A DNA stretch of 64,000 nucleotides from an uncultured Acidobacteriota bacterium (GCA_963801475.1 CAWDEX010000003.1:11638-75637), one strand, 5' to 3'. Positions 1,000-43,342 are shown, counted from the stretch's first letter. Numbers and translations: made by a program. Notes: generated by a model not told the origin, from the letters alone.

Positions 1000-1126
1000 C
1001 GGCCGGGCTTCTCTTGGTCTGTTCGCGGCCATGTTCCCAGCCCTTCCGGCGATGGCGCAGGTGCCGCTCGGAACCGCTGCCCGTATTGGCGTGCTCGGCG
1101 GCCAGGGTGTCACGAACACGGGGCCT
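1000..1126 (+). pseudogene. 5' fragment of a DUF3494/ice-binding-like secreted protein
   Basis: Signal-like ASLGLFAAMFPALPAMA, then QVPLGTAARIGVLGGQGVTNTGP, matching the LGTAAxFxVLxGxxVTNTGP start of DUF3494 domains. Similarity ends where a repeat copy begins. Confidence 0.55.
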
Positions 1127-1280
1127 GAAAACATAGGTCGCATAGCCGACCGACAGAGGAGCCCTGTCCCTTTCCTGCGGACCTTGAAGGGTCCAGCGGT
1201 TGACAGGCACCCGTCAATCCTCATGGCACGCTTGCACCGCGACGCTTCAGCCGCGTCTGACCGGGTGTTTTACTTCCGGG
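1121..1280 (+). repeat. Dispersed repeat family, degenerate core copy
   Basis: ggcctgaaaacataggtcgcatagccgaccgacagaggagccc...agggtccagcggttgacaggcacccg aligns by eye with 4103-4195. Confidence 0.7.
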
Positions 1281-1415
1281 GCGGCAGGAGGTACGTTCCG
1301 CGAGATCCGGCGCGACTGCCGTCGCCGAAGATTCCGCCGCCTCCGATTCGAGGCTTCGCCAGGACTCGTGCCCGGAGCGCCAGCGATCGAGCGCTTCAGA
1401 ACGGAGAGCTAGAGC

Positions 1416-2603
1416 GTGCCGAAGATCAGGCCAGCGAGATCGGCGAAAGGACGGGCGCGCCCGTCGTATCCGGACCTTCGCGCGCTGTGGGACCGTGTGC
1501 TCCACGAACACGCTTCGCCACTGCGTGTTGGGCTCGCGGTCGGTGTCGGCGTTCTGGTCGGCTGCAGCCCGTTTCTCGGCCTTCAGGTTGCCATTGCGGC
1601 GCTTCTCGCAGTCGCTTTCCGCCTCAACAAGCTGGCGGTGTTCCTGGGGCTCCAGATCTCGGCCCCGCCGCTCCTGCCTCTCGTACTCTTCGTCGGAGCG
1701 CAGCTCGGGGAGCTCGTTCGACACGGCCATCTTCTTCCGATGGACCTCAACGCGCTCCGGACGATGCCGACGAGAGACCTCGTCCACCTTCTCTTCTTCG
1801 ACCTCCTTGCGGGAGGGACATTGCTCGGCCTCGTTCTCGGGACGACACTCGGAACGTTGGCCGCGAGAATAGCGACTCGTAAGGCCCCGCCAGAGTTTCG
1901 TCTCTCCCGCGACGAGATGGTGCAACTTGGGGCTCGACTCCCCGCCTTGCCCTTTCGGCTCCGTCAGTACGCCCGGTGGAAGATCCTTCTCGACCCGGTC
2001 TACGCGGTCGTTGCCTCCCGACTGAAGGGCGTCCGCGAGACCCTTGATCTCGGAGCAGGGTTGGGGATCATGGCCGCGGTTCTCGTTCATCGTGATCCGG
2101 AACGGCGTGTCATCGCCGTGGAGTGGGATGCACGAAAAGTGGCCGGGGCCAGGCGGTTTCTCTCAGGGCTCTCGAAGATCGACGTCGTCTGCGCCGATGC
2201 GCGGCTCTTCCCGACCGCTCCGGTCGAGTCGATTCTCTTGCTCGACGTTCTTCATTACAGCGAACCGGTCGCTCAGGATGCGTGGCTTGGCCGGTGCGCG
2301 GCCGCGCTGAAGCCGGGAGGGCTGCTGATCGTCCGAGAGCATGACGCCTCTTCCAGAGGATCATTGACGGAGGGTCTCGAGCGGCTGACGGTCAAACTCG
2401 GCTGGAATCGAGGCCACGGTGTCCATCCTCGGAGGACGATCGATCTCGTCCGCCGGCTCGAGAGCCTCGGTCTGGACGTCGAGACGATCGACAAGAGTGC
2501 TGCATTGGCCGGTCTCAGGCTGCTTGTCGCGCGTAACTCGTTCGCGGCTGAACGGGTCCTCAGCCCGGTTACCAGTCAGGGGGGACTCGCGCAAAGGGCG
2601 TAG
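1416..2603 (+). CDS. DUF2062 membrane domain fused to class I SAM-dependent methyltransferase
   Basis: N-terminal HASPLRVGLAVGVGVLVGCSPFLG TM region; C-terminal LDLGAGLG SAM motif and LLDVLHY. Confidence 0.85.
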   Translation: MPKIRPARSAKGRARPSYPDLRALWDRVLHEHASPLRVGLAVGVGVLVGCSPFLGLQVAIAALLAVAFRLNKLAVFLGLQISAPPLLPLVLFVGAQLGELVRHGHLLPMDLNALRTMPTRDLVHLLFFDLLAGGTLLGLVLGTTLGTLAARIATRKAPPEFRLSRDEMVQLGARLPALPFRLRQYARWKILLDPVYAVVASRLKGVRETLDLGAGLGIMAAVLVHRDPERRVIAVEWDARKVAGARRFLSGLSKIDVVCADARLFPTAPVESILLLDVLHYSEPVAQDAWLGRCAAALKPGGLLIVREHDASSRGSLTEGLERLTVKLGWNRGHGVHPRRTIDLVRRLESLGLDVETIDKSAALAGLRLLVARNSFAAERVLSPVTSQGGLAQRA

Positions 2604-2670
2604 GTTTCGATTCGTTCGAAAGCTTCGGTTCGAGCCCGGAGAGCCGGGCATGAGGAGGACGGAAGGCAGC
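2555..2670 (+). mobile_element. Highly decayed IS3-like left-end remnant
   Basis: gggcgtaggtttcgattcgttc...cggagagccgggcATGAGG resembles the sequence at 7588-7660 that precedes an IS3 OrfA-like start. Confidence 0.4.
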
Positions 2671-2796
2671 TCGCGTCGATCAGGCGCGGACCGCAGTGGG
2701 CTCGGAAAGACCCGTCTCGAATGGGTCTAGAATCTTGTCGTGGTGGTAAAGGTTGGTTGGTCAAGCGACCCTCAGGGTGGAACCCGCCCGGCGGAA

Positions 2797-3411
2797 ATGG
2801 ATTCGGCCTCTCGTCGAGAGGCGGAGGCGAAGAGCCCGGTCTCTGCCGTGACCGAGAGCCGTCACCGCACCGTCGCCCGCCGGCTGGCGCCGGCCGTCAT
2901 GCTCCTTTGCGTGCTGCTCCCGGTTACCGCACGCGGGCTGGAGGTCAGGATCACTCCCGGCGCCGTCAAACGCGCGATCGAGATGTCCGCTTTTGTCAAC
3001 GGCGAGCTTACCCGGGAAACAGCCAACGGTTTTCTCGGCGTGACCTTGCGCAATCTCCGGGTTCGGTTTGATCCGGCCTCGAGCCGGGTATTGCTTGACG
3101 CCGACGCCGTCACGACTCTTTCCTGGTCTGGCGTCCTTACGATGTCGTTCCGGCCCAAGGTCGCGGGATCGAGGCTGTGGCTCGAGGACATCAGAATCGA
3201 GGGTGTCGATTCTGACCTGGTTCGCAACACCCTTCGCGAGCTCTTGAGCGCAGCGCTGGCAAGTCCCCGCGTCGATCTCGAGGAGAAGGCTCGGTCACCC
3301 ATCAGCGCATCTCCATACTCCCTCCGCATCTCGTCGCCGACGGTGAGAGACCTCCAGGTTACGAGCGCGTACATTCTTCTCCAGCTCGACGGCAGGGTGA
3401 CGGTCGAGTAG
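2797..3411 (+). CDS. Hypothetical secreted protein
   Basis: Signal-like RRLAPAVMLLCVLLPVTARG followed by a beta-rich mature region; start uncertain. Confidence 0.6.
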   Translation: MDSASRREAEAKSPVSAVTESRHRTVARRLAPAVMLLCVLLPVTARGLEVRITPGAVKRAIEMSAFVNGELTRETANGFLGVTLRNLRVRFDPASSRVLLDADAVTTLSWSGVLTMSFRPKVAGSRLWLEDIRIEGVDSDLVRNTLRELLSAALASPRVDLEEKARSPISASPYSLRISSPTVRDLQVTSAYILLQLDGRVTVE

Positions 3412-3908: not shown

Positions 3909-3926
3909 GATATCCGTGGAGGGCTG

Positions 3927-4384
3927 TGTAGGGGTGCCATGGGGATTGCCGGGCGTCTTGTCGGGCAACCCAGGACCACAATGGGGATTGCGGCCCGCAG
4001 CGAAGAAGTGTGGAGTGCCAGTTTGTCGGAGACGACACGCTTCCCGGTGCAGTTCATTCAGAGGCAGTTCCGGGCTGAGAACGGGTTGAATGTTCTCTGT
4101 TTGGCCCGAGAATACGGTTCGTGCGGCCGACCGAGTGGGGAGCCACTTCACGTTCCCGGGAGCCTGACAGGGTTTAGCGGTTTACAGATACCCCGCGACG
4201 ACCTCGCGGGGTCCCGCGTCTAAAGGTCGTGGAATCTGAAGGGTTTCCGCATGGCGTGTCGGCCCTGGCCTGTTCTCTGCCGCTGGAACTGAGAACGCCG
4301 AGTCACCCGCCAGAAGCCTTCTCTGGCCCGGTAGCCGCTCTCTGGCGGCCTGAAATGTCGAGAGCGGCCGAAGGCGGTTAACAG
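3927..4384 (+). repeat. Dispersed repeat family, near-complete copy (left end plus core)
   Basis: Starts TGTAGGGGTGCCATGGGGATTGCC; GGAGCCA 4139-4145; GCGGTTTACAG 4177-4187; hairpin ACCCCGCGA-cgacc-TCGCGGGGT 4190-4212; second GCGGTTAACAG 4374-4384. Confidence 0.85.
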
Positions 4385-4776: not shown

Positions 4777-4969
4777 AGGTCGGACCTCCTTCGCGGCGTT
4801 ACGGTGGACTGGAAAGGAGTCTATGCGAGACAGCCGGGTGCTGCGGGAAGGACGCAATGGGAGTTGCGGCAGGGCCGAAAGGGCGACTGGCGCGGGAGGG
4901 AAGGAAAGCGACGATAACCTCGGTGTCGGGAGAATGCCAGTCAGGCCGGACGGAGCCGCGCCATCTCCC

Positions 4970-7366
4970 TCAGCTGCCGTTTACCCCCAGGCGCGCTCTC
5001 TCTTTCCATCGGGCCGCATCTCTATCCAGTTTCATCCTGCCGTAGAGATCGGCGATGAGTCTGTAGGTCACAACGGACGGGTTCTGTCTCGCGAAGCCGT
5101 TGAGGACCTCATGGACCTTCTGCACATCGTATCCCCAGGCATAAAGGAGGCACAGCGACGTGGCGGCGTCCGCATTCGTCGGGTTGAGGGTCAACTCGGT
5201 CAGGAGGTGCCGTTCCGCTTCCTGTCGGAGCTGGGTCCGCCCGGCTTCGTCTTCGATGTTGCGGCTTTCCTGAAGGAGCAGGGCTCCCAGGTAGAAATGG
5301 ATGTAAGGCAAGGTCCGGGGGGAACGCCCCTGGAGTCCTTCGAGGGCTTTCTGGAACAAGGGAAGCGCCTTCGAATACTCCCGGTTTCGATACGACAGGA
5401 CCCCTTCGATGTACGGAACGGCGGCGGGTAGGCCTCGTGCTGCTCGAGTTGCCGCCTCTCGGGCGGCTTCGGGTCGTCCTTCGGTGACTTCCAGAAAGGC
5501 GCGCCGGGCCTCCGCTTCATCCGGCTTTTCGAAGGCGGCTATTTCCAGCTCTTTCCTGGCTTCCTCGGGTCGCTTGAGCTGAACGAGGATGTCGACGAGA
5601 TCAAAGCGTTGCCGACTTCTCTTCGGTGCTATCAGAAGGCTCTGTTTCAGCGCGTCCGCTGCCTTGTCGAGGTCGCCAAGGCGCCGGTATGTTTCGCTCA
5701 GCTCGTCCCACGCGTCGATCATTCGAGGACTGCCCGCCAGGACCTTCTGGAGAATCCCGGCCACCTTGGTAAAGAAGAAAGCGCTCTTCAGCCTCATGGC
5801 CTGGCGGTAGAGGACCAGATCTCCGATACGATCCTTCGGATCGGGAGCCGCGTCGTCCCCGCGTGAATCCAGCGTCCCGGAGCCGATATAGCCGAGGGCC
5901 CGGAGCTTCTTGACCTGTTCCTCGTCGACGGTGTCCGGGGCCTTGAGCACCGTTTGCCCCACGTAGCTCCTCAACCCCCTGTGCATCTTCTCGTACTCGA
6001 GGGCTACGGACCGGGAAAGCCCCGCGCTCGGCGACACGTCCGAAGTGCGCTGGGAGAGGATGTTGTGTACCTCCCCTGGGTCCTGCCGGACATCGTAGAG
6101 TTCCTGCCGCGGAGCGAGAATGAAGCTGTACTGAGAGCCCGTCAGGCTGAAGAGTTCTTTCCAGCCGAAGTGCAGGCGGCCGTACAGGCTCTCCGCATAT
6201 ATCTGGCGGTCTTCGGGGAACTCCTGGCCTCGAAGCGCCGGAATCAGCGACTTCCCCGGAAGCTGCGAATTCGGCGGGAGACCGGCCCAGTCGAAGATGG
6301 TCGGTGCGACGTCGATGAGCTGCACCGGAGCCTGAACGCGACTCCCGCCCTTCTGGCTCCCGGGAAGCTTGATGATGAGCGGGACGCGCGTCACCTCCCG
6401 GTACAGGAAGACCCCGTGGTCGGGTTCACCGTGGTCACCGAGGGCTTCGCCATGGTCCGAAAGCAGGACGATCAGGCTCGAATCGTAGAGGCCCAGCTTC
6501 CGTAGCCCCGCAAAGAGGTTGCCCACGATCTCGTCGCTGTACATGACTTCCCCGTCATAGGGAGCCCTGTCCGGCCGCAGGAATCGGGTGGGTGGCTTGT
6601 ACGGCGTGTGAGGTTCGTAAAAGTGGACGAACAGGAAGACGGGACCCTTCTTGCCCACCGAGGATCCGGATCCCGTGGATTGTTTGGTCAACCAGGCCAG
6701 AGCCCGGCCGAGGGTCTCAATTCCGTCTCGTTGGACCTCCGTGACAGGAACCTGGGCATCGGTCACTTTCATGTCATCGTCGAACCACTCGAAACCCTGG
6801 GAGATTCCCGTCGATGAGTGCAGCACGTACGCGGAGACGGCCCCGCCTGTGGAATAGCCGGCTTGCTTCAATTCCGTCGCCAGCGTTCTGGCGCCCCTGT
6901 CGACCTGGAAACCAATGTTGTTTCGCACTCCATGCACAGGAGGCAGCAAGCCGGTGAAGATGGATGCGTGGGCCGGGAGCGTCAGTGGAACGTGGGTGTA
7001 GCAGTTCTCGAAGACGACGCCGCCGCGGGCCAGTTCGTCGATGGCGGGCGTCTGGATCTTTCCATAGCCGTAGATCGGCAATCGGTCAGCCCTCAACGTG
7101 TCGATGGAGATGAGGATGACCGGCGTGCGGCGAGCGGCTGCACCGTACAGGCGAATGAGCGTCAGAGTGAAGAATCCCAGGACCAGGACGAGGAGCGCAG
7201 CCAGAGCGACTTTCCGGGTTCTCGGCCGGATGGCACGGATAACACGCTGGAGGGCGCCCGTCCGTTCAGGGTGGCGCCGGGTGTGTACGGAGCTTTCTGC
7301 ACGGGGCTGGGCGCGCCCGGGCTCATCCGGGGTGCGATTCTTCGTGCCGCTTCGTTTCCGGGCCAT
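4970..7366 (-). CDS. Sulfatase-like hydrolase/transferase with C-terminal TPR repeats
   Basis: ILISIDTLRADRL, PLTLPAHASIFTG, HFYEPHTPY, LSDHGE; N-terminal TM; TPR-like helices after LRALGYI. Confidence 0.9.
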   Translation of the reverse strand: MARKRSGTKNRTPDEPGRAQPRAESSVHTRRHPERTGALQRVIRAIRPRTRKVALAALLVLVLGFFTLTLIRLYGAAARRTPVILISIDTLRADRLPIYGYGKIQTPAIDELARGGVVFENCYTHVPLTLPAHASIFTGLLPPVHGVRNNIGFQVDRGARTLATELKQAGYSTGGAVSAYVLHSSTGISQGFEWFDDDMKVTDAQVPVTEVQRDGIETLGRALAWLTKQSTGSGSSVGKKGPVFLFVHFYEPHTPYKPPTRFLRPDRAPYDGEVMYSDEIVGNLFAGLRKLGLYDSSLIVLLSDHGEALGDHGEPDHGVFLYREVTRVPLIIKLPGSQKGGSRVQAPVQLIDVAPTIFDWAGLPPNSQLPGKSLIPALRGQEFPEDRQIYAESLYGRLHFGWKELFSLTGSQYSFILAPRQELYDVRQDPGEVHNILSQRTSDVSPSAGLSRSVALEYEKMHRGLRSYVGQTVLKAPDTVDEEQVKKLRALGYIGSGTLDSRGDDAAPDPKDRIGDLVLYRQAMRLKSAFFFTKVAGILQKVLAGSPRMIDAWDELSETYRRLGDLDKAADALKQSLLIAPKRSRQRFDLVDILVQLKRPEEARKELEIAAFEKPDEAEARRAFLEVTEGRPEAAREAATRAARGLPAAVPYIEGVLSYRNREYSKALPLFQKALEGLQGRSPRTLPYIHFYLGALLLQESRNIEDEAGRTQLRQEAERHLLTELTLNPTNADAATSLCLLYAWGYDVQKVHEVLNGFARQNPSVVTYRLIADLYGRMKLDRDAARWKERARLGVNGS

Positions 7367-7544
7367 GGAGCGCTTTCTTCTCGCAGGTTTCGAGCGGAAT
7401 CGAGAGGTCAAGCTCTGGGAGGTAACTCTGTTCCCGTGGCTGTCACTTGATTGGCTCGCGATGACGCGGCGTGTCCCGCCCCTCAGTCACCGACAGGATT
7501 GAATCGGAGCCTCCTACAAGCGCCTCGGAATGCTAGCACCCGGG

Positions 7545-7710
7545 GGGGTCTTTTCCCGTTTCTTGGTCCAGACCGACTCTAGTTAGGGGGCGTAGATTTC
7601 GGTTCGTTCCTAGGCTCCGGGGGAGCGTGGAGAACGGATCGTTGAGGAAAAGCCGGTTCAGCGAACAGAAGATCGCACGGGCCCTGGGACAGGGTGAGGC
7701 CCGGGAGCTG
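7545..7710 (+). mobile_element. IS3-family left-end remnant with OrfA N-terminus
   Basis: IR-like cttttcccgtttcttggtcca, then GGAG RBS and LRKSRFSEQKIARALGQGEA (compare IS3 OrfA MRKSRFSEEQI); the rest of the transposase is absent. Confidence 0.6.
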
Positions 7711-7894
7711 GGGAGTGCCGCGGGGATCGGACGGGCGGCCGGGTGGACCGAACGGGATGCGGCGGGATCGTCGGGACATCCGAGGCGACCGGACTGGAAT
7801 GAGCGCATGACGAGCCCTCGTCGGGCCAGAATGCCAGCGCCCCCGGCCCGAATCGGGGCTACTGCCGATGGCGGGAAACCGGCTCCAGGGGGTG

Positions 7895-7960
7895 ACCGCC
7901 GCCGGCTATTCCCAACGCGCCCTTACAATACCCCGCAATTCCCAATGCATCCCTCCAACT
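7895..7960 (+). repeat. Right-end-type fragment of the dispersed repeat (two inverted end motifs)
   Basis: cgccggctattcccaacgcgcccttaca and ccccgcaattcccaatgcatccctcc resemble 18268-18290 cgccggcaattcccatcgcgc. Confidence 0.6.
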
Positions 7961-10239: not shown

Positions 10240-10406
10240 TTTGCGCCCTCAGGCGAGCGTACGCTTTCTGCGGGAAGAAAGTCCATTCACGTCCCCTTCC
10301 CCGGCACCGGTGAACGCGTCTGCCCCGGGGAACGCGATGGTTGCGAATCCGGGCGACACGCCGATGGCGCCCACGCCACCCCGGTCTCCTCACTGTCGGC
10401 GCCGCT

Positions 10407-10570
10407 GCCCGGAGTCGCCGGTGGTCCCGAGAATCCGGTTAGCGCGGCCGACCGGCTGCGGAGCCACTACTCTCCCCCGCGAACTCAAGGAGGGTCCGCG
10501 GTTAACAGGAACCCGACGACGACCTCGCGGGGTTTCGTGCCTGAAGGGCCGGACTCAGAAGGACTTCCGG
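10407..10570 (+). repeat. Dispersed repeat family, core copy
   Basis: ccgagaatccggttagcgcggccgaccggctgcGGAGCCActactctcccccgcgaac...GCGGTTAACAGgaacccgacgacgacctcgcgggg...tcagaaggacttccg. Confidence 0.85.
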
Positions 10571-10594
10571 CTCAGGAGCGGCCGATTCTCTTGG

Positions 10595-11490
10595 CTACCG
10601 CGGCGCGTCGTTGTTCGGCGGCGAGATCGGCGCCACGCTTCCCTGCCACTCGACCGTGATGGTGCCTCCGAAGCTGCCGTCGGTGAATTTCTTCTGGAGG
10701 AGGCGGAAATTTCTGTCATACGAGACCTGGAGGGCAGGAAGCGGGAGGACTGCGGTGTCGTCTGGCGGCACCGGGAACATGTCCGCACCTTCCAGGATGC
10801 CGAAGAGCGGCGCCACCGTGTAGGTCCCGTAGCAGTTCTGGCCGCCGCTGATCGTCGCGATGAACGGGATGTCCCCCGCCGACGCCGCGCCAAGTGCGAG
10901 GCCGATCGCGCCCTGTCGCGAGTTCGTGTCCACTTTCGCTCCCGACGCCAGGACGAGGGGGAGCGAAGCCCCTCCCCCGGAGGCCGGCGCCGCGAAGGTG
11001 CCGTGGCCGCGGAGGGTCACGGTGCAGCCTCCCGCGGCCGCCGAGCCGGAGCCCGTCAGGGGCATGGAGGAGTCCCTGGTCAGGAAGATCCCACGAACCG
11101 GGAACGATGGCGACGCCCCCGGCTTCTCGCGGTAGCTGCCGACGTCCGCGCGGAGGCGAATCGTCCCGTTGCCCTCGAACTTCCAGCCCGAGAGGCCCAT
11201 CGCGTTCGACCACAGGTAGTGGAGAGGGATGTCCCACTCCGTGAGCTGGCGCGCGTTGCTCTTTCGCTCGGCCCCCATCTCTCCCGGAACCACGACGTAG
11301 ACGTCCCCGTTCCCGTCGAGCCGTCGTACTGGTTGTGCCAGGCGACCGACACTTCGACCCGCCGCTGCGAGAGGAGGAGCGTCGTCGCCGCCGGTGCGGA
11401 CGAAGACACGACGGCCGAGCCGAGGACGAGCGTCACGGCCGCGACGAGACCCGTCCTCGAGAACACCTGGTTCGAGTTCCTGATCTTCAT
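10595..11490 (-). pseudogene. Secreted protein split or internally deleted (frame change near 11290-11310)
   Basis: Frame 1: signal peptide plus RRVEVSVAWHNQYDGSTGTG. Frame 2 begins DVYVVVPG..RKSNARQLTEW (IPT/TIG-end-like) and runs to 10595. Confidence 0.55.
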
Positions 11491-11605
11491 GAACTACCCC
11501 CCAACCCGGTCACTGCCCGCTTCGGCAACAAGCATGGAAGTGACAGCCCAATAATGGAACATACGATCGGGTGGCGGGCGTCACTGCCGGGCTCATGCCG
11601 GGTGC

Positions 11606-11660
11606 CGTAGGGACTCGATGGGAATTGCCGGGGCTTCTCTCGCCAGGAAACCAGGACCCG
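11606..11660 (+). repeat. Left-end fragment of the dispersed repeat
   Basis: GTAGGGACTCGATGGGAATTGCCGGGC..ccaggacc resembles 3928-3977. Confidence 0.6.
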
Positions 11661-11879
11661 AGTTTCCTCTGTTCCGGCTGACCAGGGTGGTCTTCCACCC
11701 AGCGCCGGCCCGGGGTGCGAGGAGACGCGGTCGACTGAGGCACCCGGGCGTCTGTTCAGGCAAGCCATGGGGTTCTGGCGAGGCCCAAGGAGGTCGGCCT
11801 CCTCGCCCCGTGGCCCCCCCTGCCTCCCGCGGGACTAGAATTCGTGCCGGCTCTCCGGAAAGGGCTGATCGAGAAAAGG

Positions 11880-13514
11880 GTGATCCGCCGTGCGCGTCTC
11901 GCGACGCTCGTTCTCCTCATCGGAGGCTCAGCGATGACGGGCCCCGGCGGAGGGGCGCCGGTGGCGACGGCGCCGGCCGGTCCGGTCCGGCCCGCCGCCC
12001 TCGCCGGCTCCTGGTATCCCGGCTCTCCGGCCCTCCTCCTCGCGACCGCGCGGAGCCTGATGCGTCAGGCCTCGGCGGCGCCGATGCCGTACGGCCGGCC
12101 CGCCGCCCTCGCCGTCCCGCACGCCGGCTGGGCCTACTCGGGGACGGTCGCCGCGGCGGCCTTCCGGATCCTCAAGCCGGGCTCCTTCACGCGCGTCGTC
12201 GTGATGGCCCCCTCGCACCACGCGGCCTTTTCGGGCTACGCCCTCGAGGACGCCGCGGCCTACCGGACTCCGCTCGGCGAGATCCCGCTCGCGAGCGCCG
12301 CCCTCCGCGACCTCGAGACGCCCGGCCTCGCGCGCGTCGTTCCGGGAGCGACGGGACCCGAGCACGCCGTCGAGATCGAGCTCCCGTTCCTGCAGGCGGC
12401 GCTCCGCTCGTTCACCCTCGTCCCGATCCTCGCCGGGCGCGTCGACGCCGCGGCCGAGAAGGCCTTCGCCGAGAAACTCGCGCGGCTCGACGACGGCAAG
12501 ACGCTCTTCGTCTTCTCGTCGGACTTCACGCACTACGGGCCACGCTTCGACTACATGCCGTTCGGGCCGACGGTCGGGGCGCGCGCGAGGGTCCGCGAGC
12601 TCGACGACTCGGCGATCGGTCTCCTCCGGCGGCTCGACGCGGAAGGGTGGCGGAGCTTCGTCCGCGAGAAGGAGGCGACGATCTGCGGGGATGCGGGGCT
12701 CGTCACGATGCTCGAGCTCCTCCGGCGGATCGCCCCCGGGGCGAAGGCGACGCTCCTCGCGCACTGGGCCTCGGGCGAGATGCCGGGCCTCAGCGACGAC
12801 AGCTCCGTCGACTACGCGTCTCTGGCGTACACGCGCGAGGAGGGGTCCGTCGGGGAGCCGATGAACGCGCCGCCGCGGATCGCCGCGGTGGCGGCGGACG
12901 ACCCGCCGGTGACGGACGCCGTCGGACACGCGCTCGTCCGGGTCGCGCGCGGGGCGCTCGACGCCGAACTCCGCGGCGACACGGCCCCTCTCGACGCCGC
13001 CCTCCGGGAGCTGCCCGAGAGGCACGCCTCCCTCCCCCAACAGGCGGTCTTCGTGACGCTGAAGCGGAAGGACCCCGCCGCGATCGCGCGGCTCGGCGAC
13101 CTGCGCGGCTGCATCGGGCAGGTCGTCCCGACTTACCCGCTCGACCTCGCCGTCGTGAAGTCGGCCCTCGACGCGGCCCTCGACGATCCGCGCTTCCCCA
13201 GGGTGGAGGCTTGGGAGCTGCCGGGGCTCTCGGCCGAGGTGACCGTCCTCTCGCCGATCGTCCCGATCGTCTCCTGGAAGGAGATCCGGATCGGGACGCA
13301 CGGGATCGTCCTCGAGAAGGGGGCGCGCCGCGCGCTCTTCCTCCCGCAGGTCGCCCTGGAACAGGGGTGGACGGTCGAAGAGACGCTCGACGCCCTCGCG
13401 CAGAAGGCGGGCCTCTCCCGCGGGGACTGGAGGAGCGGCGCGAAGTTCTCCGTCTTCACCGGGCAGGTCTTCCGCGAGGAGGCGGCCCGGGCGGCCCCGC
13501 TCCCGAAACGATGA
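11880..13514 (+). CDS. amrB: AmmeMemoRadiSam protein B (MEMO1-like) fused to protein A (AMMECR1-like)
   Basis: VRPAALAGSWYP, PHAG, PSHH, EHAVE, SSDFTHYG, TICG; then FVTL..LRGCIG, DPRFP, LFLPQVA; N-terminal hydrophobic signal; start uncertain (11844 or 11880). Confidence 0.92.
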   Translation: MIRRARLATLVLLIGGSAMTGPGGGAPVATAPAGPVRPAALAGSWYPGSPALLLATARSLMRQASAAPMPYGRPAALAVPHAGWAYSGTVAAAAFRILKPGSFTRVVVMAPSHHAAFSGYALEDAAAYRTPLGEIPLASAALRDLETPGLARVVPGATGPEHAVEIELPFLQAALRSFTLVPILAGRVDAAAEKAFAEKLARLDDGKTLFVFSSDFTHYGPRFDYMPFGPTVGARARVRELDDSAIGLLRRLDAEGWRSFVREKEATICGDAGLVTMLELLRRIAPGAKATLLAHWASGEMPGLSDDSSVDYASLAYTREEGSVGEPMNAPPRIAAVAADDPPVTDAVGHALVRVARGALDAELRGDTAPLDAALRELPERHASLPQQAVFVTLKRKDPAAIARLGDLRGCIGQVVPTYPLDLAVVKSALDAALDDPRFPRVEAWELPGLSAEVTVLSPIVPIVSWKEIRIGTHGIVLEKGARRALFLPQVALEQGWTVEETLDALAQKAGLSRGDWRSGAKFSVFTGQVFREEAARAAPLPKR

Positions 13515-14665
13515 AGAACCGCCGCGAACTCCTCGTCTCGGCCGTCGCCGCGGCCGGAGCGGCGGCGACGGGACGGCTCGTGCGCGCCTCGGGCCTCCAG
13601 AACGCCGACCGCGCACCGGCGCTGCGGACACCGACGGCACCGTCACCCGGCCTCGCCGCGCAGCCGGCCCGCTGGTGGTCGCCGCTCCCCGGCCGGGGGG
13701 TCGCCTGCGGCCTCTGCTTCCGCGGGTGCGAGATCCCGGAGGGGGAGCGCGGCGAGTGCGGCGTCCGCGAGAACCGGAGCGGCCAGCTGAAGACGCTCGT
13801 CCACTCCCGCCCCGTCGCCCTCAACCTCGACCCGATCGAGAAGAAGCCGTTCTTCCACGTCCTCCCCGGGACCTCGGCGCTCTCTCTCGGGACCGCCGGA
13901 TGCAACTTCCACTGCCGCTGGTGCCAGAACTGGGAGATCTCGCAGTCGCGTCCGGAGAAGATCCCCGTCCCGACGCGGACGCCCGGGGAGATCGCTGCGC
14001 TTGCCCTGAAGAGGGGGGCTCCCGTCGTCGCGTGCACCTACTCGGAGCCGACGGTCTTCGCCGAGTACGTCCTCGACCTCGCCGTCGCGGCGCGGAAGGC
14101 GGGGCTGAAGACGGTCGTCGTCTCGAACGGCTCGATCCGCGAGGAGCCGCTTCGCGAACTCTGCCCGGTCCTCGCCGCCTACAAGGTCGACCTGAAGGCC
14201 TGGTCGGAGAAGACCTACCGCGAGATGTGCAGCGGCGAGCGGAAGGCGGTCTTGGACACGCTCCGGAGGCTCGCGAGGGCGAAGCTCTGGACCGAAGTCG
14301 TCACGCTCGTCATCCCGACGATCAACGACTCCGAGGCCGAGATCCGCTCCCTCGCGCGCTTCGTGAGGGACGAGGTAGGGCGCGAGACGCCCCTGCACTT
14401 CACGCGCTTCAACCCGACCTACCGGCTGACGAACCTCCCGCCGACGCCCGTCGCGACGCTCGAGAAGGCGCGGGAGATCGCGCTCGCCGAGGGGCTCCCG
14501 TTCGCCTACGTCGGGAACGTCCCCGGGCACCCGGGGGAGTCGACGTACTGTCCCGGCTGCAAGGCGCGGCTCATCCACCGCGTCGGGATGGCGACGGTCG
14601 CGAACCGGCTCAAGAAGGGGGCCTGCCCCGACTGCAGCCGCGCGATCCCGGGCGTCTGGAGTTGA
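13511..14665 (+). CDS. amrS: AmmeMemoRadiSam radical SAM enzyme
   Basis: CGLCFRGC..GECGVREN, DPIEKKPFFH, GCNFHCRWCQNWEISQ (CxxxCxxC), TYCPGC, CPDC..IPGVW; ATGA overlap with amrB; Tat-like KNRRELL. Confidence 0.95.
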   Translation: MKNRRELLVSAVAAAGAAATGRLVRASGLQNADRAPALRTPTAPSPGLAAQPARWWSPLPGRGVACGLCFRGCEIPEGERGECGVRENRSGQLKTLVHSRPVALNLDPIEKKPFFHVLPGTSALSLGTAGCNFHCRWCQNWEISQSRPEKIPVPTRTPGEIAALALKRGAPVVACTYSEPTVFAEYVLDLAVAARKAGLKTVVVSNGSIREEPLRELCPVLAAYKVDLKAWSEKTYREMCSGERKAVLDTLRRLARAKLWTEVVTLVIPTINDSEAEIRSLARFVRDEVGRETPLHFTRFNPTYRLTNLPPTPVATLEKAREIALAEGLPFAYVGNVPGHPGESTYCPGCKARLIHRVGMATVANRLKKGACPDCSRAIPGVWS

Positions 14666-14668
14666 AGG

Positions 14669-16921
14669 TCAGCGGGGGCGCGCCGCACCGAGGGCCGCGA
14701 GGAGGACGACCGCGGCGGCGAGGAGACCGGTGACCGTCATCCCGAGCGCGGGGACGAGCGCGACGCCCGCGAGGAGGGCCGCGGCGGCCGCCCCGAGGTG
14801 GTCGGCCGCCTCGAACGCCGCGGCGGAAGCGCCCGCGCCCTGTCCCTCCTCGAGGAGGACGGCGGTCGCGAAGGGGAAGAGCGACCCCGTGGCCGCGCCG
14901 GAGGCGAGGAGGAGGAGGGCGTGCGCGCCGAAGGCGGCCGCCGGCGGAGCGGAGGAGAGGCGCGCGAGCGCGGGGAGGGCGAACGCGACGGCGGCGAAGG
15001 CGGCGCCCACCGCGAGGAGGGGTACGAAAAGGCCGCGGCGCGGCGGCGCGGAGCGCGCAGCGACGAGCCGGCGCGCGCCGGCCGCCCCGGAGGCGAGGCC
15101 CATCATGAACGCGGCCGTCAGCGACCCGAGCGCGCCGTAGAGGCTCCCCTCGCGCGTCTGGAAGGAGAGGAGGAGGAGAAAAGAGAGGGCCATGCCGGCG
15201 GCGCCCGTGGCGGCGGCGCCGCTCCGGGCCGCGCGGCTTGCGCGGGCCGGGGCGACGAGGCCCCGGAGCGCGACGGCGGCGGCCGGGAGGAGGACGAGGA
15301 GGACGAGGAGCGGCGCCGGCAGCCGCGCGAGAGCTCCGAGCGCGCGGGCGGCGGGGCTGGCCGTCTCGAGCCCGCGGCGGGCGAGGGCGAAGAGGAGCGA
15401 GACGGGGCGGTCGTCACGGCTCGGTGGGACGCCCCCCGCGGCGTCGTCGAGCGCGGCCTCGAGTCGCGTGACGTTCCCCGGTTCGAGGAGCAGCGGGAAG
15501 AGCTCGGGGGCGAAGGCCCCGGCGGCGATCTGCCGCACGTGGAAGCGGTCGGCGACGACGCCCGGGTCGAGCGTGACGGCCGATGGATCGAAGCCCGCCA
15601 CGAGGAGGCTGTCGGGGCCGGGCGTCGCGTGGACGACGGGGAAGACGGACCGGAGCGCCCTCCAGACCGAGCCGCCGAGCGCCGCGGTCGGGCCAGTGAG
15701 CGCCGCGGCGGAGGTCCGGAGGGAGACGACGAGAACGCCGCTCGGCGTGAGGCGCGCGGCGGCGGCGCGGAACGTCTCCTCGGTCAGGAGGCGGGCGCGG
15801 GAGAGCGTGACCGGGTCGAGGCCGGCGAGGAGGACGAGGTCCCACGCGCCCACGGAGCGTGCGAGGAAGCGGCGCGGGTCGTCCTCGACGATGCGGACGC
15901 GCGGGTCGAGGAGGGCCCGGCGGTCGGTCTCGGGAAGCCGCTCGCGGACGAAGGCGAGGGCGCGCGGGTCGGGCTCGACGAGGTCGACCCGCTCGGGGCC
16001 GTGGAGGAGGAGGAACCGAAGGGCGCCGTGGGCCACCTCGGAGGTCGCGAGGATCCGCCGCGGCGACGGGGCGAGGGAGCCGGCGAGGTGAGCGAACCCC
16101 TCGCTCGTGAAGGGATCGGGGAAGCTCGCGGCGTAGGCGCCGCTCGAGTAGAGGACGAGCGGGCCGTCGCCGCCGAGCGCGAGGTGCGCGTACGGCGTGT
16201 CGCGGACGGCGCGGAGGGGCGTTCCCGGCGCGAGGGCGCCGAAGCGGGCCCGCTCCGTCGCGTCGTCGAGGGGGCGGGCGGCGGCGAGCGCCGCGGCGAG
16301 GAGGGCGAGCGCGGCGAGGGGGCCGCGCCGCGCGGGAAGCCGCGACGCCCCGACGAGGGCCGCGGCGGCGAGCCCCGCGAGGAGGGCCGCGGGGAGCGGC
16401 CGGAGGAGCGTCCCGACGAGGAGGCTCGCGGCGCATCCGGCGACGAGAGAGCCGACCGACTCGACGACGTAGAGGCGGGCGAGCGCCGCGCCCGCCGGCA
16501 GCTGCCGGGCGGCAGCGGCGGCGAGTGCCGCGAACGAGGCGCCGACGAGCGCCCCGGCGGGGAGGAGCGTTGCCGCGGCGAGGACGAGAACGGTCCCGAG
16601 GCCGGGCAGCTCGCCGGGCGGCGGCGCGGCGGCGAGCTGGAGGAGGCGGAGCGCGACGATCCCGGCTGCCCCTGCGATCGCGAGGAGGGAAAGGAGCGGC
16701 GCGCCGAGGCGCGGGAGACGTTCCGGCGAGGCCCGCCGCGCGGCCAGCGCGCCGAGGGTGATGCCGAGGAGCCAGGCGGCGAGGCCGGTGCCGATCGCCG
16801 CCTCGTCCCCCGCGGCCGAGACGAGGAGTTCGCGCAGGAGGAGGACCTGGGCGGCGGTCGCCGCGAAGCCGGCTGCGGCGAGCGCCGGGAGGAGCCGTGG
16901 GAGGGCGTCGGGTCCGGGCAC
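14669..16921 (-). CDS. Spermidine-synthase-like membrane protein (TM - SAM domain - TM)
   Basis: AQVLLLRELL, LYVVESVGS, DTPY, VEPDP, DPRVRIVEDDPRRFL, DDRP; TM blocks at both ends. Confidence 0.85.
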   Translation of the reverse strand: MPGPDALPRLLPALAAAGFAATAAQVLLLRELLVSAAGDEAAIGTGLAAWLLGITLGALAARRASPERLPRLGAPLLSLLAIAGAAGIVALRLLQLAAAPPPGELPGLGTVLVLAAATLLPAGALVGASFAALAAAAARQLPAGAALARLYVVESVGSLVAGCAASLLVGTLLRPLPAALLAGLAAAALVGASRLPARRGPLAALALLAAALAAARPLDDATERARFGALAPGTPLRAVRDTPYAHLALGGDGPLVLYSSGAYAASFPDPFTSEGFAHLAGSLAPSPRRILATSEVAHGALRFLLLHGPERVDLVEPDPRALAFVRERLPETDRRALLDPRVRIVEDDPRRFLARSVGAWDLVLLAGLDPVTLSRARLLTEETFRAAAARLTPSGVLVVSLRTSAAALTGPTAALGGSVWRALRSVFPVVHATPGPDSLLVAGFDPSAVTLDPGVVADRFHVRQIAAGAFAPELFPLLLEPGNVTRLEAALDDAAGGVPPSRDDRPVSLLFALARRGLETASPAARALGALARLPAPLLVLLVLLPAAAVALRGLVAPARASRAARSGAAATGAAGMALSFLLLLSFQTREGSLYGALGSLTAAFMMGLASGAAGARRLVAARSAPPRRGLFVPLLAVGAAFAAVAFALPALARLSSAPPAAAFGAHALLLLASGAATGSLFPFATAVLLEEGQGAGASAAAFEAADHLGAAAAALLAGVALVPALGMTVTGLLAAAVVLLAALGAARPR

Positions 16922-16981
16922 GGGGTCTCCCGTCCAGCTTAGGCCCGAAAGGGTCCGACTCAGTAGCAGAGGTAGGAGAAG

Positions 16982-17266
16982 GAGTTCTGACCCGAGAACG
17001 TCTCGAACTTCTCAGTTCGGCCGAGGAACTGAGTTCGCGTGGCGGATCGACTGCGGAGCCACTCTTCTCCCCCGCGAACGTCTGGCAGATTCGCGGTAAA
17101 CAGGAACCCCGCGATCGTCTCGCGGGGTTTCGCGTCTAAAGTTCGTGTAGTCAGAAGGGCTTCCGCGCGGGGCGAGGCTCGGCCGGTTAACAGCCCGCGC
17201 CGTGGCGCGATCGGACTCAGGTCTCTGCGCGCCGCAGCCTCCGGCAGGTCTCATTGCGCCCCGACA
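16982..17266 (+). repeat. Dispersed repeat family, core plus right end
   Basis: GGAGCCA 17055-17061; GCGGTAAACAG; hairpin AACCCCGCGA-tcgtc-TCGCGGGGTT; second CGGTTAACAG near 17184; GACTCAGGTCTCTGCGCGCCGCA; ends CATTGCGCCCCGACA. Confidence 0.85.
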
Positions 17267-17302
17267 GTGATCGGTGTCGCGTCGACCGGCGGGACGGCCT
17301 CT

Positions 17303-17761
17303 CTAGTGGCGCGGCTCCAGGACGATCTCCCGCGCAAGACGATCGCCGATGATCTCGCGGATCTCGAGGCGGTCCTTGTATCCCTGCATCTGCTTCTGGT
17401 CGTCACCGCTGATCTTCTGGGATAGGGCGTCTGCCTTGACCTCGTTCGCCTCCATCGTGCCGAGGTCCTTGAACTCGGTCATCAAGATGATGTTGAAGTC
17501 CTGAGTGCCATGGCCTTCGGTGGTGAGCACCTTCCACGAAAGGATCAGCCCCTCCTTCTTCATCGCCTCCTGTTCCGCCTTCCAGGTGGTGGCGATGTAG
17601 TTGAGGTACGCCGTGTCCATTCCCGGCTTGATGCGGATGAACGCCATCGTCCAGACCGATCCGGGGCGGTACGGGCGCTTGACCTGCGCGTAAGCGGAAA
17701 GGCCTCCGAAGAGGAGTGCGGCCGCGATCGAGGCAACGACGATTCTCTGTTTCAGCTTCAT
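17303..17761 (-). CDS. Secreted hypothetical protein (NIPSNAP/dimeric alpha-beta barrel-like)
   Basis: Signal peptide AYA|Q; IRIKPGMDTAYLNY...KKEGLILSWKV; AAGGAG RBS. Confidence 0.8.
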   Translation of the reverse strand: MKLKQRIVVASIAAALLFGGLSAYAQVKRPYRPGSVWTMAFIRIKPGMDTAYLNYIATTWKAEQEAMKKEGLILSWKVLTTEGHGTQDFNIILMTEFKDLGTMEANEVKADALSQKISGDDQKQMQGYKDRLEIREIIGDRLAREIVLEPRH

Positions 17762-17816
17762 TTGTCCCTGCTCCTTACTCTTGAATGCGTTTGAGACTCT
17801 ATCCCATCTCTCCGAT

Positions 17817-34900: not shown

Positions 34901-35758
34901 ACTCATGACGAGCGGCTCTTCGCACAGGCGGCAGCCGCTCTGGGCTGCTCGCTGCTCGCCCTGCGCGAGAAGGCGAACGCCCAGGGGCTGCTCGACATGG
35001 GCGCCGACCCGCGCTGGCTGCCGGGCTACGTCGACCCGGCCGGCGGCGAGGCACTGGAGCAGATGGAGAAAGAGCTGGGGGTGGTCCTGGGCGACCTCCC
35101 GCCCCCCGGCCTGGACGTGGCCCAGCTCCTGCGCGAGAAGAAGATCCGGGGCGCCGTCGTGCTCGGCGAGGACCCGTTGGGTGCTCACGGCTTTCCGCAG
35201 GACCTGCGTGACGGCCTCCTGGCCGCCGACTTCCTGCTCGTGGGCGACCTGTTCCTCACGTCCACGGCCGCCGTCGCCACCGTGGCGTTACCGCTGTCGA
35301 GCACGGCGGAAACGAGCGGCACCATGACCAACGCCGAGCGCCGCGTGCAGGGGCTGCAGCGCGCAGTGCCCCCCGCGGGCGGGATGGAAACCTGGGAGAT
35401 CCTCAGCCAGCTCGGCGGCCTGCTCGGTTACCGGTTCAAGATGAAGTACGGGTCGGTCCAGGACGTGACCGCGGAGATCCGACGGGTCGCGCCGATCTGG
35501 GCGGGGCTCGATCCCGGCTCTGCGGGTGCTATCTGGGACACGACCGGAGTCAAGCCGCCTAGGGTCCCGTTCACCGGGCTCGGGGAGGCGTTCGTCCCGG
35601 TGCCCACTCTCGCGCTCGATACGCTGGAGGACCGCTTCGCGACCTGGTTCGCCAGGATTTTCAAGAAAGCCCGCCGGGATCGGCCCGTCGACCAGCGGTT
35701 CGTCTCGCCGAACAGCCGTGTCGCCGGTTACTCATCCGGCGAATCCGAGAGGGTCTAG
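31932..35758 (+). CDS. Fused [2Fe-2S]-GltD/NfnB-like FAD/NADP domain + 2x[4Fe-4S] + NuoG/Fdh-like domain (StnC-like), frameshift in G-run at 34149-34155
   Basis: IPTLCH..C..C..C; PCQLACP, CGRVC; VVGAGPAG; VVGGGNTAVDCAR; CVLCGRCVRIC; CPYCSAGC..GNHCRKGRFG in the next frame; TNEEIYLAQKLAR..HNVTS lacks the Mo-ligating Cys/Sec. Confidence 0.88.
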
Positions 35759-35830
35759 CGGGTTTCAGACGCCCCGCAGATCCTTCGCGGGATCTGGTGC
35801 CCAAAGGTCCTGGAATCAGAAGCGCTTCCG
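35680..35830 (+). repeat. Dispersed repeat family, degenerate core overlapping the 3' end of the StnC-like gene
   Basis: cggttcgtctcgccgaac..agggtctagcgggtttcagacgccccgc..tcgcggg..aaaggtcctggaatcagaagcgcttccg aligns with 4115-4250. Confidence 0.7.
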
Positions 35831-35915
35831 AGATGCGCGTCGATAGCGACCGCGGTCAGAACGGGAAGCCGACTGTGGCGGGAATGCTGACGAGACTCGT
35901 GCCCTGCACCTTGAA

Positions 35916-41792: not shown

Positions 41793-42032
41793 ATGTCCGA
41801 CCCGAAGATCGCTGCCAAGCAACCGATTGTCGTCAGGCTGGAAGCCGGCAGGACATACGCCTGGTGCCGTTGCGGCCTGTCCAAGGGGCAGCCGTTCTGC
41901 GACGGGACCCACAAGGGCTCCGGTTTCACGCCGCTCGTCTTCAAGGCGGAGGATACGAAAGACGTCTGGCTCTGCCAGTGCAAGCACACCGGACATCCTC
42001 CGGCGTGCGACGGCACCCACAAGACTCTCTGA
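41793..42032 (+). CDS. CDGSH iron-sulfur domain protein (two motifs)
   Basis: WCRCGLSKGQPFCDGTH and LCQCKHTGHPPACDGTH. Confidence 0.93.
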   Translation: MSDPKIAAKQPIVVRLEAGRTYAWCRCGLSKGQPFCDGTHKGSGFTPLVFKAEDTKDVWLCQCKHTGHPPACDGTHKTL

Positions 42033-42059
42033 CGCTCAGGTGCCGTTGCGATTCCGGGC

Positions 42060-42227
42060 GTGAAGATTGACGGCGTCCTGAAGATCACCCGGATCCGGGT
42101 CGCCTGCACGCTTTCGGTCCCACCGGGGATGGCCGACGACGCCCGCGAGGCGCTCAAGATGGCCATCACTCAACGCCCCGCCGCCATGAGCGCGATGGGG
42201 TGCATCGAGATCGTCGATTCGGCGTAG
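42060..42227 (+). pseudogene. OsmC-like protein C-terminal remnant
   Basis: Manual translation VKIDGVLKITRIRVACTLSVPPGMADDAREALKMAITQRPAAMSAMGCIEIVDSA; the conserved CP reads RP; no N-terminus. Confidence 0.5.
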
Positions 42228-42521
42228 ATCAGTGAGCTTCCGGCCTGAGGCTCGCGGCCGGGCCTCGGGCCATGGCGGGATTCCCTCCGCCGGAGGCGGG
42301 GGTGTCCGCGATTCATGATCCAAAGGCCATTGGGCGGCCTCCGGCCCGGTTCGGGCGCGAGGCGGCCGCGAGCGGTTCGGCCTGCGGCGACGGGGTCGAA
42401 GCTCTGATGTCGTCCCATCAGACCTGGATCGACCGATTCCGTAGAATGACGCCTCCGGAGCTTTTCCGTCTTCAGGTCTCTCGCGCTCGCCGGGTGGTAC
42501 GCTGAACGAAGGAGGCCGATC

Positions 42522-43277
42522 ATGCGCTTTCCTGTTTTCGCAGCGGCAGGCGCTGTGGTTCTCGCCGCCGCCTTGAACGCGCAGCAACCCCAGCCGGCGC
42601 AGCAACCCCAGCAGCCCCAGCAACCGCCGCAAACCCAGGCGCAGGGAGCCGGAGGATCGCAGGCCCAGGGCTTTCAACCGCCATACACCATCTATCGCGT
42701 CGACCTCATCCCCGCCGGCTTCGGGTTCGCGATGGAGGAGCCGAAGCTGGAGGGTGACGTTTGGGTCTTCCGCAGCCTGCCGGACAAGACTCTCGAGCGG
42801 GTTCCCAAGGCAAGAGTGAAGTCCGTCAGCCGGTGGTCGACGGACTACAGCAAGGAGGTCGTCTACCAGGTCGAGTTCCTTCCCACCGGCGGCGTCCTCG
42901 CCCGCGAGGAGCCGGTGAAGAAAGGGAGGCTCTACCTGATCAACACCTGGAGGCAGGGAACGCTTCTCTCCATGCAGGAGGGGGACGTCAAGAGCATCAC
43001 CCGACTGACGGGGTTTCCGGCGTTCAAGGCCGAGATGAAGGAGCTGGGCGTCGTCGTCCTGGAGACCGAGACGACCCACGCGGGCTTCAAGCAGACGGGA
43101 GATACGCCGGCACCGGGCGCGGCGTCAGCGGGAGCCCCGTCCACGAGATCGGGCCAGGGCAACTGGACGTACCAGGGGACTCCGGGGGCGTCGGACGCAT
43201 ACGCGCCGGGGAACGCGACGGTCGCGAAGCCGGGCGACACGCCGATGATGCCCCAGCCGACGCAGCCTCCTCACTAA
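42522..43277 (+). CDS. Secreted hypothetical protein with Gln/Pro-rich linker
   Basis: AAGGAGG RBS, signal peptide, QQPQ repeats. Confidence 0.8.
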   Translation: MRFPVFAAAGAVVLAAALNAQQPQPAQQPQQPQQPPQTQAQGAGGSQAQGFQPPYTIYRVDLIPAGFGFAMEEPKLEGDVWVFRSLPDKTLERVPKARVKSVSRWSTDYSKEVVYQVEFLPTGGVLAREEPVKKGRLYLINTWRQGTLLSMQEGDVKSITRLTGFPAFKAEMKELGVVVLETETTHAGFKQTGDTPAPGAASAGAPSTRSGQGNWTYQGTPGASDAYAPGNATVAKPGDTPMMPQPTQPPH

Positions 43278-43286
43278 CGCGCCTCG

Positions 43287-43342
43287 GCCCGGAGCCGCCC
43301 GGAGGCCGGAGAACGCGGCTCGCACAGCCGACCGGGTGTGGT
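43287..43342 (+). repeat. Dispersed repeat family, short core fragment
   Basis: gcccggagccgcccggaggccggagaacgcggctcgcacagccgaccgggtgtgg aligns with 10407-10462. Confidence 0.6.

Follow-up and report, generated by a model that had tools for sequence, protein, structure and literature searches.

What are the long, diverged, non-coding repeats that recur between the genes of an acidobacterial contig, all facing the same way? The question is raised by a 64,000-nt stretch of DNA (the window) from an uncultured Acidobacteriota bacterium (GCA_963801475.1, CAWDEX010000003.1:11638-75637), which corresponds to C3:11638-75637 of a 4.21-Mb genome (G000) with 69% G+C and three contigs, C1 to C3. The original prediction, made from the window alone, reported at least eight copies of such a repeat on the + strand and offered a site-specific recombination site, a non-autonomous mobile unit or a structured RNA as explanations. 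Our analysis favours the recombination site, given the tRNA 3' end found in the units, their breakage at a core, the exchange of cargo between them and the arms of large serine recombinase (LSR) elements joined to them in relatives. The repeats are probably the att-type junctions of a hotspot for integration into the 3' end of tRNA-Asn(GTT).

A diverged repeat family in one orientation

An initial repeat search recovered a 158-nt unit in four copies and a fifth, partial copy. Scanning the whole genome with an nhmmer profile built from the four best copies gave 10 matches with E<1e-5, seven on C3, one at the extreme end of C2 and two on C1, and each of them lies on the + strand of its own contig. 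All eight reported copies are members of a real family (five strong, one moderate and two partial), and the weak copies at 19439 and 43287 were recognized by block alignment as genuine left halves, about 160 nt being common to 43182-43341 and 10301-10461. Additional copies beyond these eight lie at C3:1338-1496, at C2:956156-956277 and at two positions on C1. The hairpin pattern CCCCGCGA-N5-TCGCGGGG, with up to two mismatches allowed, was matched four times, compared with a mean of 0.31 in shuffled sequence, and 0 of 100 shuffles reached four. The unit is longer than first reported, unit B of the window matching units of a congener across 4054-4384, and its conserved length is 220-500 nt. Inside one genome the units are mutually only 62-70% identical, and identical runs are short.

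The units carry the 3' end of tRNA-Asn

ARAGORN predicted one tRNA-Asn(GTT) gene in the genome (C2:956092-956166), 327 nt from the end of C2, and no tRNA in the window, so that the tRNA link emerged from the whole-genome scan. The profile match at C2:956156-956277 begins within the tRNA-Asn gene, and alignment revealed that CTGCGGAGCCA of the gene is also present in the units and, as in them, leads into the right arm. Within tRNA-Asn, the near-invariant block CTGCGGAGCCACT corresponds to the 3' strand of the acceptor, the discriminator base and the CCA end, which establishes the tRNA identity of the repeats. This connection, missed at first reading, puts them in a known class, and the statement that they fit no named family was thus overturned.

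The array is anchored to the same gene. In the congener G002, tRNA-Asn is followed by eight same-strand units over 41 kb of a single contig, and in G004 tRNA-Asn and all units lie on the opposite strand. Orientation therefore follows tRNA-Asn and not the replichore, against which the strand bias was to be checked. Units found only downstream of the gene and in its orientation are thus the rule in G002 and G004, and also in G000 if C2 joins C3. We infer that C2 continues into C3 because G002 carries a homologue of the window's sulfatase (19.5-21.4 kb) on the contig of its tRNA-Asn, about 39 kb downstream. The exceptions to the rule are a stretch of G003 without an intact tRNA-Asn and the two G000 copies on C1. 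The latter (C1:1551447-1551544 and C1:2286230-2286328) are right-half-type copies, covering profile positions 82-182 and 92-176, and are distant from tRNA-Asn.

The unit was present in 13 of the 41 related genomes searched, G000 included. It occurs in seven of eight genomes of its own genus (G000 counted), in 4/4, 1/1 and 1/1 genomes of three other genera and in none elsewhere. The right arm is homologous to the tRNA-Asn flank in the unit-bearing genera; in genera without units, similarity of the tRNA locus ends at the CCA.

Units break at a single core

Seventy profile matches were collected from arrays and from loci of other genomes. Full units make up 36 of them; 16 are left halves ending at profile positions 90-112, eight are right halves starting at 92-113, five of these being fused to the tRNA-Asn gene, and 10 are of other kinds. 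Breakage at the core is therefore found in 24 of the 34 partial matches. The site of an LSR is compact, measuring about 40-50 bp, with imperfect dyad symmetry about a central dinucleotide. By eye, GTTCGCG...CGCGAAC forms a 47-bp dyad centred on the core GGA, within a conserved unit that is much longer, and TGAGCCA/TGGCTCA of an attP rebuilt from a genome of another genus, G024, has the same centre, likewise by eye.

Segmental duplication of the tRNA flank with RecA-dependent recombination between its copies would need no dedicated recombinase, and it is consistent with the homology of the right arm to the tRNA-Asn flank and with the arrays of this genus, in which no recombinase was detected. 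We regard it as highly unlikely, however, since the units of one genome are so diverged and their identical runs so short, since conserved positions are interspersed with variable ones in the manner typical of selected motifs, and since the breaks cluster at a single 13-nt core.

Serine recombinase elements are joined at the same point in related genera

The original prediction asked whether any copy abuts a recombinase or transposase gene. No recombinase gene was found next to attL in the arrays of G000, G002, G003 and G004, all of this genus; such a gene was found in related genera, in G024, G022, G010, G017 and G041, beside tRNA-Asn or units. In G024 the gene for a 567-aa LSR (PF00239 and PF07508) overlaps the 3' end of tRNA-Asn, and a right-half unit (GGGGAGCCACT, H3 and H4, the two right-arm hairpins described below) lies 20 kb downstream of it, with GGAGCCACT as the direct repeat. 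The two ends form a classic attL...attR pair. In G022, G010, G013, G017 and G041, genes for a second LSR type (Resolvase, Recombinase and Zn-ribbon domains) are located 1-5 kb away from tRNA-Asn or a unit, and the extended right arm of the units has its homologue in the DNA between the tRNA and this gene.

The junction itself is fixed. An arm of the G024-type element, with its own terminator, stands after GAGCCA behind the tRNA in G024 and, at six loci in other genomes, behind the left arm of a unit, demonstrating that LSR elements of related genera are joined at this one point to the tRNA or to units. In these relatives, then, the element also docks at units, as secondary sites.

The units could instead be tyrosine recombinase sites, served in trans by an integron integrase, as an atypical cassette array, or by a P4-type tRNA integrase since lost. 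A 220-500-nt, arm-rich site with repeated CTGAGAAC boxes is closer to a tyrosine-type attP than to an LSR site. An IntI-type gene is also present in G000 (C1:1030285-1031250, - strand, 321 aa, C-terminus TMIYTHVLNQAGGRGVRSP), PF00589 matches of similar score in G002-G004 are candidate IntI proteins, and remnants of intI lie inside the G002 and G003 arrays. Yet PF00589 had no match in or beside any array examined; tyrosine-integrase searches of nine genomes found none in the arrays, and a small integrase profile with jackhmmer over 6215 six-frame open reading frames (ORFs) recovered just a 28-aa intI tail. A strict attC scan (RYYYAAC...GTTRRRY palindrome) gave one site near intI on C1 and none in C3:1-60000; the units are not attC, and the classical attC sites of the genome lie elsewhere and are unrelated to them in sequence. 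Since the recombinases found at the core in relatives are moreover of the serine type, we consider tyrosine recombination unlikely.

Other integron features were seen in these genomes. The region C1:1021308-1031250, outside the window, is a classical chromosomal integron, with attC-like sites at about 1021.3, 1025.6, 1026.2, 1027.5 and 1029.4 kb on the 3' side of intI. A second attC-like cluster (C1:1467581-1493690; six BLAST matches), with a partial tyrosine-recombinase match at 1493544-1493690, has the appearance of attC sites left with no more than an integrase remnant. The intI 3'-end remnants within arrays span 23-28 codons (L013 of G003, 11336-11404; L016 of G002, about 2158-2241), and in G003 seven attC-like sites run ahead of the remnant and the first unit comes after it. 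Periodic 225-nt repeats in L127 (G000, C1:1040.6-1045.9 kb) contain TGTGGCA..GCGCAGG words that read as CxxCH motifs on the other strand, and L127 is probably a very large multihaem cytochrome gene.

Cargo is exchanged between species

The units separate cargo blocks of 1-6 kb, whose content is variable, shuffled and horizontally acquired. The blocks are 83-95% identical in DNA to those of congeners (95.2% over 2623 nt with G003; 93.6% over 5141 nt with G004) and stand in a different order, compared with 72-82% identity for the approximately 6 kb upstream of tRNA-Asn, which demonstrates that cargo has been exchanged and shuffled between species. In metagenome data, one contig from a relative fuses 17132 straight to 19518 (likeness threshold 88), which weakly supports the att-site explanation. 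Of the earlier proposals, the non-autonomous mobile unit suits the islet of cargo and unit, not the repeat by itself.

Units, motifs and cargo of the window

The eight units of the window, A to H, all lie on the + strand. Unit B (4045-4384) is full, with left arm, core GTGGGGAGCCACT, H3 and H4, and an extended right arm (nhmmer 4045-4260, E 5e-63), and is 74-75% identical to two G003 units across 4054-4384. Units D (16962-17266; nhmmer 16962-17178, E 2e-60) and E (17901-18288; nhmmer 17901-18112, E 4e-59) are also full, each with a right-arm extension and a minus-oriented 29-nt motif (m-, see below). Unit C (10301-10581) consists of a variant left arm (10301-10395), GCCGACCGG, core, H3 and H4 (nhmmer 10396-10581, E 2e-46). 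Left arms only were found as unit F (19437-19496; E 0.04), which is decayed ahead of the core and aligns to the left arms of B and E, and as unit H (43182-43341; nhmmer 43304-43341, E 1.6), which is of the unit-C variant type and stops just short of the core. Unit A (1122-1218; E 1.4e-10) is degenerate, covers profile positions 60-156 and has its core altered to GGAGCCC; at its position in G002 a full unit precedes homologous methyltransferase cargo. Unit G (35696-35840; E 7.5e-11) is decayed, covers profile positions 72-216, has lost the core and overlaps the 3' end of a molybdopterin-oxidoreductase ORF. Between 10301-10394 and 43182-43275, a segment of 94 nt shows 77% identity, and the way in which its differences are spaced hints at a short reading frame conserved on the - strand (..IGVSPGFAT[IV]AFPG..), the second copy having no assignable start codon.

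A 29-nt motif with the core GCAAT-GGGA-ATTGC, which begins TGTAGGGG and finishes CCCCTACA, frames many units, in plus orientation (m+) upstream and in minus orientation (m-), often in tandem, downstream; a genome-wide profile search of G000 found it confined to the array region. On the + strand, m+ motifs lie at 3924-3957 (TGTAGGGG..GGGATTGCCGG, upstream of unit B; motif profile match), at 11603-11638 (motif profile match) and at 17815-17840 (upstream of unit E), and two weak ones at 19135-19183 were recovered by the repeat-family search and the motif profile. On the - strand, two tandem m- motifs (7894-7954) share 82% identity with the m- motif that follows a unit in G003, and the motif profile places sites near units D and E at 17234-17270 and 18268-18288. 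A sigma-54 reading of the motif was rejected by eye, the GG and GC being one base too far apart; with regard to a promoter reading in general, the orientation of the motif relative to neighbouring ORFs is inconsistent.

Such framing raises the possibility that m+ motif, unit and m- motif together form a transposon without its own transposase, like a miniature inverted-repeat transposable element (MITE), with the 29-nt motifs as terminal inverted repeats. The inverted pairs, often tandem, flank units and occur nowhere else in the genome, and conserved cargo blocks of G003 are flush with the motifs. Transposition would not, however, confine copies to one orientation and to a single locus tied to tRNA-Asn; many units are without one or both motifs, and no transposase was found among 33 array ORFs scanned against Pfam, no transposase-specific search having been made. 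We judge this explanation very unlikely.

The cargo itself was assigned by Pfam. The block at 1210-2715, with a DUF2062-methyltransferase ORF (1416-2603, + strand), matches G002 at 87% identity and comes after a unit there too. The block at 4951-7573, with a sulfatase-TPR gene (4970-7411, - strand), has 95.2% identity to its counterpart in G003 and 93.5% to that in G004; in G003 an m- and an m+ motif bound it exactly, and in G000 it shows a small deletion at the left and a decayed motif at the right. A radical-SAM ORF and a spermidine-synthase-like membrane ORF occupy 11814-16952, which is 93.6% identical to G004, the homology extending over 5141 nt and stopping 10 nt short of unit D. Within this block, 14669-16942 has 78% G+C and is open on both strands for about 750 codons, the ORF with the spermidine-synthase domain being on the - strand. 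Units D and E enclose a one-gene islet (17303-17761, - strand) whose 152-aa ORF matches no Pfam family. Near the distal end of the dense array, the block at 19510-21417, with a sulfatase ORF (19516-21291, - strand), is 83% identical to G002. The inter-unit ORFs lie on either strand and specify accessory proteins of ordinary kinds (two sulfatases, a SET-domain protein, the DUF2062-methyltransferase, the radical-SAM protein and the spermidine-synthase-like membrane protein), several being without a Pfam family; a MacB/HlyD transporter, a hydrolase and an encapsulin are encoded immediately before the window begins.

Anatomy of the unit and its hairpins

The anatomy of the unit was derived from 31-34 aligned units. 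The left arm comprises TCATTCAGAAGCGGTTCCGGG, CTGAGAAC-loop-GTTCTC (hairpin H1), a second CTGAGAAC and GGTTCG-N4-GCCGACCGA, and leads into the core TG.GGAGCCACT. The right arm comprises H3 (CCGCGAAC/GTTCGCGG), a GGTTAACAG box, H4 (CCCCGCGA/TCGCGGGG) followed by TTTCG, then GTCTAAAGG and TCAGAAGG.TTTCCG, and beyond these blocks about 150-250 additional nt are conserved. H4 and the following T-run read as an intrinsic terminator in the sense of the tRNA, and the hairpins together look like a tRNA trailer and terminator. The left arm (GTTCG..GCCGACCGA) is possibly a decayed 3' part of tRNA-Asn; of 1000 shuffles, 33 (unit E), 73 (unit B) and 343 (unit D) scored at least as high as its alignment to the tRNA. 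A T-arm-like stem (CGGT/ACCG) in the left arm and a hairpin pairing CATTC with GAATG were both dismissed, neither being kept across units. In G003, a degenerate H3 follows the stretch at about 8788-8860 of L014.

Pairing is kept in 89.5% of cells for H3 and 95.6% for H4. RNAalifold predicts both hairpins with a covariation term of only -0.46 kcal/mol. For a three-helix structure, 88.3% of cells pair compared with 85.5% in shuffles, and the covariation score is 0.185 compared with 0.139, neither being reached by any of 500 shuffles, and six pairs are changed on both sides, a number reached by 43 of 500 shuffles; as the aligned units are kin, these shuffle figures should not be read as probabilities. 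Cells that deviate from the common pair mostly form G.U in the sense of the tRNA (53 cells, compared with nine of A.C, in a hand count of the pairing table), an excess that fits hairpins read on that strand, as trailer or terminator. Covariation at the hairpin base, on which the original prediction had relied, was borne out only in part: the base pair is AU in 18 of 31 units, GU in nine, GC in one and another in three, and the GACG..CGTC pairing at 18043 is seen in unit E.

These hairpins bear on the proposal that the unit acts as an RNA needed by each cassette, whether as a tRNA-like 3' module, a small RNA, an attenuator or an insulating terminator. In its favour are the conservation of H3 and H4, the covariation score and six double changes, the G.U preference on the + strand, the T-run after H4 and the complementarity of GGTTAACAG to the anticodon loop of tRNA-Asn. 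Against it, Rfam gave no match at gathering score in the whole window, and unit B, searched at E up to 10, reached only chance level (E 1.5 or worse); the RNAalifold term is small, the six-pair count is reached by 43 of the 500 shuffles, and the most conserved blocks (GCCGACCGA and GGAGCCA) are unpaired. Breakage at the core and fusion to recombinase arms would also be left unexplained. We therefore find an RNA function for the unit quite unlikely; the structured-RNA option retains weak support, two hairpins being kept with few compensatory changes and no Rfam family matching.

The GGTTAACAG boxes lie at 4177-4187, 10498-10508, 17093-17103 and 18033-18043, with further boxes at 4376, 17183 and 18205. 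They exactly complement the anticodon loop CTGTTAA of tRNA-Asn together with 2-4 stem bases, and since CTGTTAACAG is palindromic this complementarity may be due to chance. At 17060-17127 and equivalent positions, H3 and H4 nearly repeat each other in their 5' strands (CCCCGCGAAC and CCCCGCGA) and likewise in their 3' strands (GTTCGCGG and TCGCGGGG), so that an attenuator-like alternative fold, in which the 3' strand of H3 pairs with the H4 5' strand, may be possible.

How the array may grow

If the units are att-type junction sites, small circular islets consisting of cargo and one unit would recombine at the core GGAGCCA with the tRNA gene or with a resident unit. With each insertion the tRNA body would be retained and would receive a new CCA end, trailer and terminator, and a cassette landing beside the tRNA would have to supply both trailer and terminator. 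Older islets would be pushed distally, where decay would follow, and the outcome would be a chain of units in one orientation that divides the cargo. Within the window, the weakest copies are those at the greatest distance (35.7 and 43.3 kb), and the G003 array ends in a decayed tRNA-Asn fragment. As to the enzyme, we lean slightly towards LSRs that are supplied in trans by transient helper elements and move the islets of this genus.

Several observations weigh against this explanation. Searches with PF00589 and PF00239 in G000 and G002-G004 gave no match in the arrays, tBLASTn with five LSRs gave none in four arrays of the genus, and the G024 LSR was matched in none of eight genomes of the genus. 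Textbook LSRs recombine attP only with attB, so that tandem accretion needs a relaxed or assisted enzyme. An LSR site measures about 50 bp, and the conserved unit of 220-500 nt far exceeds it. An excision product was not observed in the metagenome contigs of relatives, which cannot show circles; among sequencing runs, none of RNA was listed as containing the sequence, the best DNA runs shared at most 0.20 of its words, and four runs yielded contigs only from relatives. In G000, the border of a block does not always coincide with a unit, 570 nt separating unit B from its block. The stretch fetched from G003 contains no intact tRNA-Asn, just a decayed fragment at its distal end, and its array abuts a remnant of an integron integrase gene.

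A further-reaching reading, which we put forward tentatively and regard as rather doubtful, is that the array may be a working, integron-like capture platform with no recombinase of its own. The units would be universal docking sites (pseudo-attB) that also give tRNA-Asn its CCA end, trailer and terminator, and cargo circles of 1-6 kb would cross between soil and wetland Acidobacteriota species by means of LSRs lent by transient helpers. The 29-nt inverted motifs would then be handles for an accessory or directionality factor.

Relation to known systems

The closest described system is that of the tandem ssrA islands of Dehalococcoides, from which the present case differs in form. As described there, tandem islands lie downstream of the single-copy essential gene ssrA, with the CcrB-family serine recombinase DsiB encoded beside attL, and are bounded by direct repeats of the ssrA 3' end with extra conserved bases around them; some islands without an integration module are read as cis-mobilizable and grown by accretion (PMC3146451). 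Going by that description, the two systems share tandem elements behind a single small-RNA gene, bounded by repeats of its 3' end. They differ in that the target here is tRNA-Asn instead of tmRNA, that the unit measures 220-500 nt instead of 20 bp plus about 85 bp, and that the approximately nine islets here are mostly 1-6 kb, none with a recombinase, and have an extra 29-nt inverted framing motif.

The tycheposons of Prochlorococcus are described as integrating repeatedly at one tRNA, so that older elements are pushed distally, and their islands as containing partial tRNAs and scattered degenerate remnants, most tycheposons using tyrosine recombinases and a minority LSRs (bioRxiv 10.1101/2020.12.28.424599). 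The logic of accretion seeded by a tRNA, with scattered remnants, is alike; according to that account, however, their repeats are partial tRNAs only, whereas here long units are conserved past the tRNA and are regularly spaced at cassette borders. In Islander-type islands at tRNA and tmRNA genes, the split tRNA is restored and a displaced fragment is left at the far end (PMC4383910). Our units resemble these islands in both respects, but the latter, as presented in that source, usually have tyrosine integrases and occur as single islands (PMC4383910).

MITEs and insertion sequence ends are marked by terminal inverted repeats, target-site duplications and dispersed copies; here inverted 29-nt motifs frame many units, but the copies face one way and keep to a single locus. 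Composite staphylococcal cassette chromosome (SCC) islands at rlmH (orfX) are moved by Ccr large serine recombinases. They too combine serine recombinases, elements lined up in tandem at the 3' end of a single gene, and pseudo-elements that lack a recombinase but have the same bounding repeats; they differ in their protein-coding target and short repeats. Clusters of attC sites can exist without an adjacent integrase, in clusters of attC sites lacking integron-integrases (CALINs). Integrons and CALINs share with our array the single orientation, the short cargo between recombination sites and the shuffled cassette order, but the units are not attC (no such palindrome in the array), cargo is found on both strands, and real attC arrays lie elsewhere in the genome. 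A literature search for such islands in Thermoanaerobaculia, or for tRNA-Asn together with large serine recombinases, found none, which does not exclude their existence. The locus is a hotspot of a known kind, in an unusually dense, recombinase-free form.

Significance

Long, diverged, non-coding repeats in one orientation should be checked first against tRNA ends on neighbouring contigs. If serine recombinases do act in trans, the array would be a natural system of multiple landing pads, and the recombinases of relatives would be candidates for genome engineering. For the organism, our results give a testable picture of how accessory genes are swapped in an uncultured and poorly studied acidobacterial lineage (Thermoanaerobaculia-type genomes), in which sulfatases, radical-SAM enzymes, transporters and encapsulin would be exchanged at a single hotspot behind the only tRNA-Asn gene.

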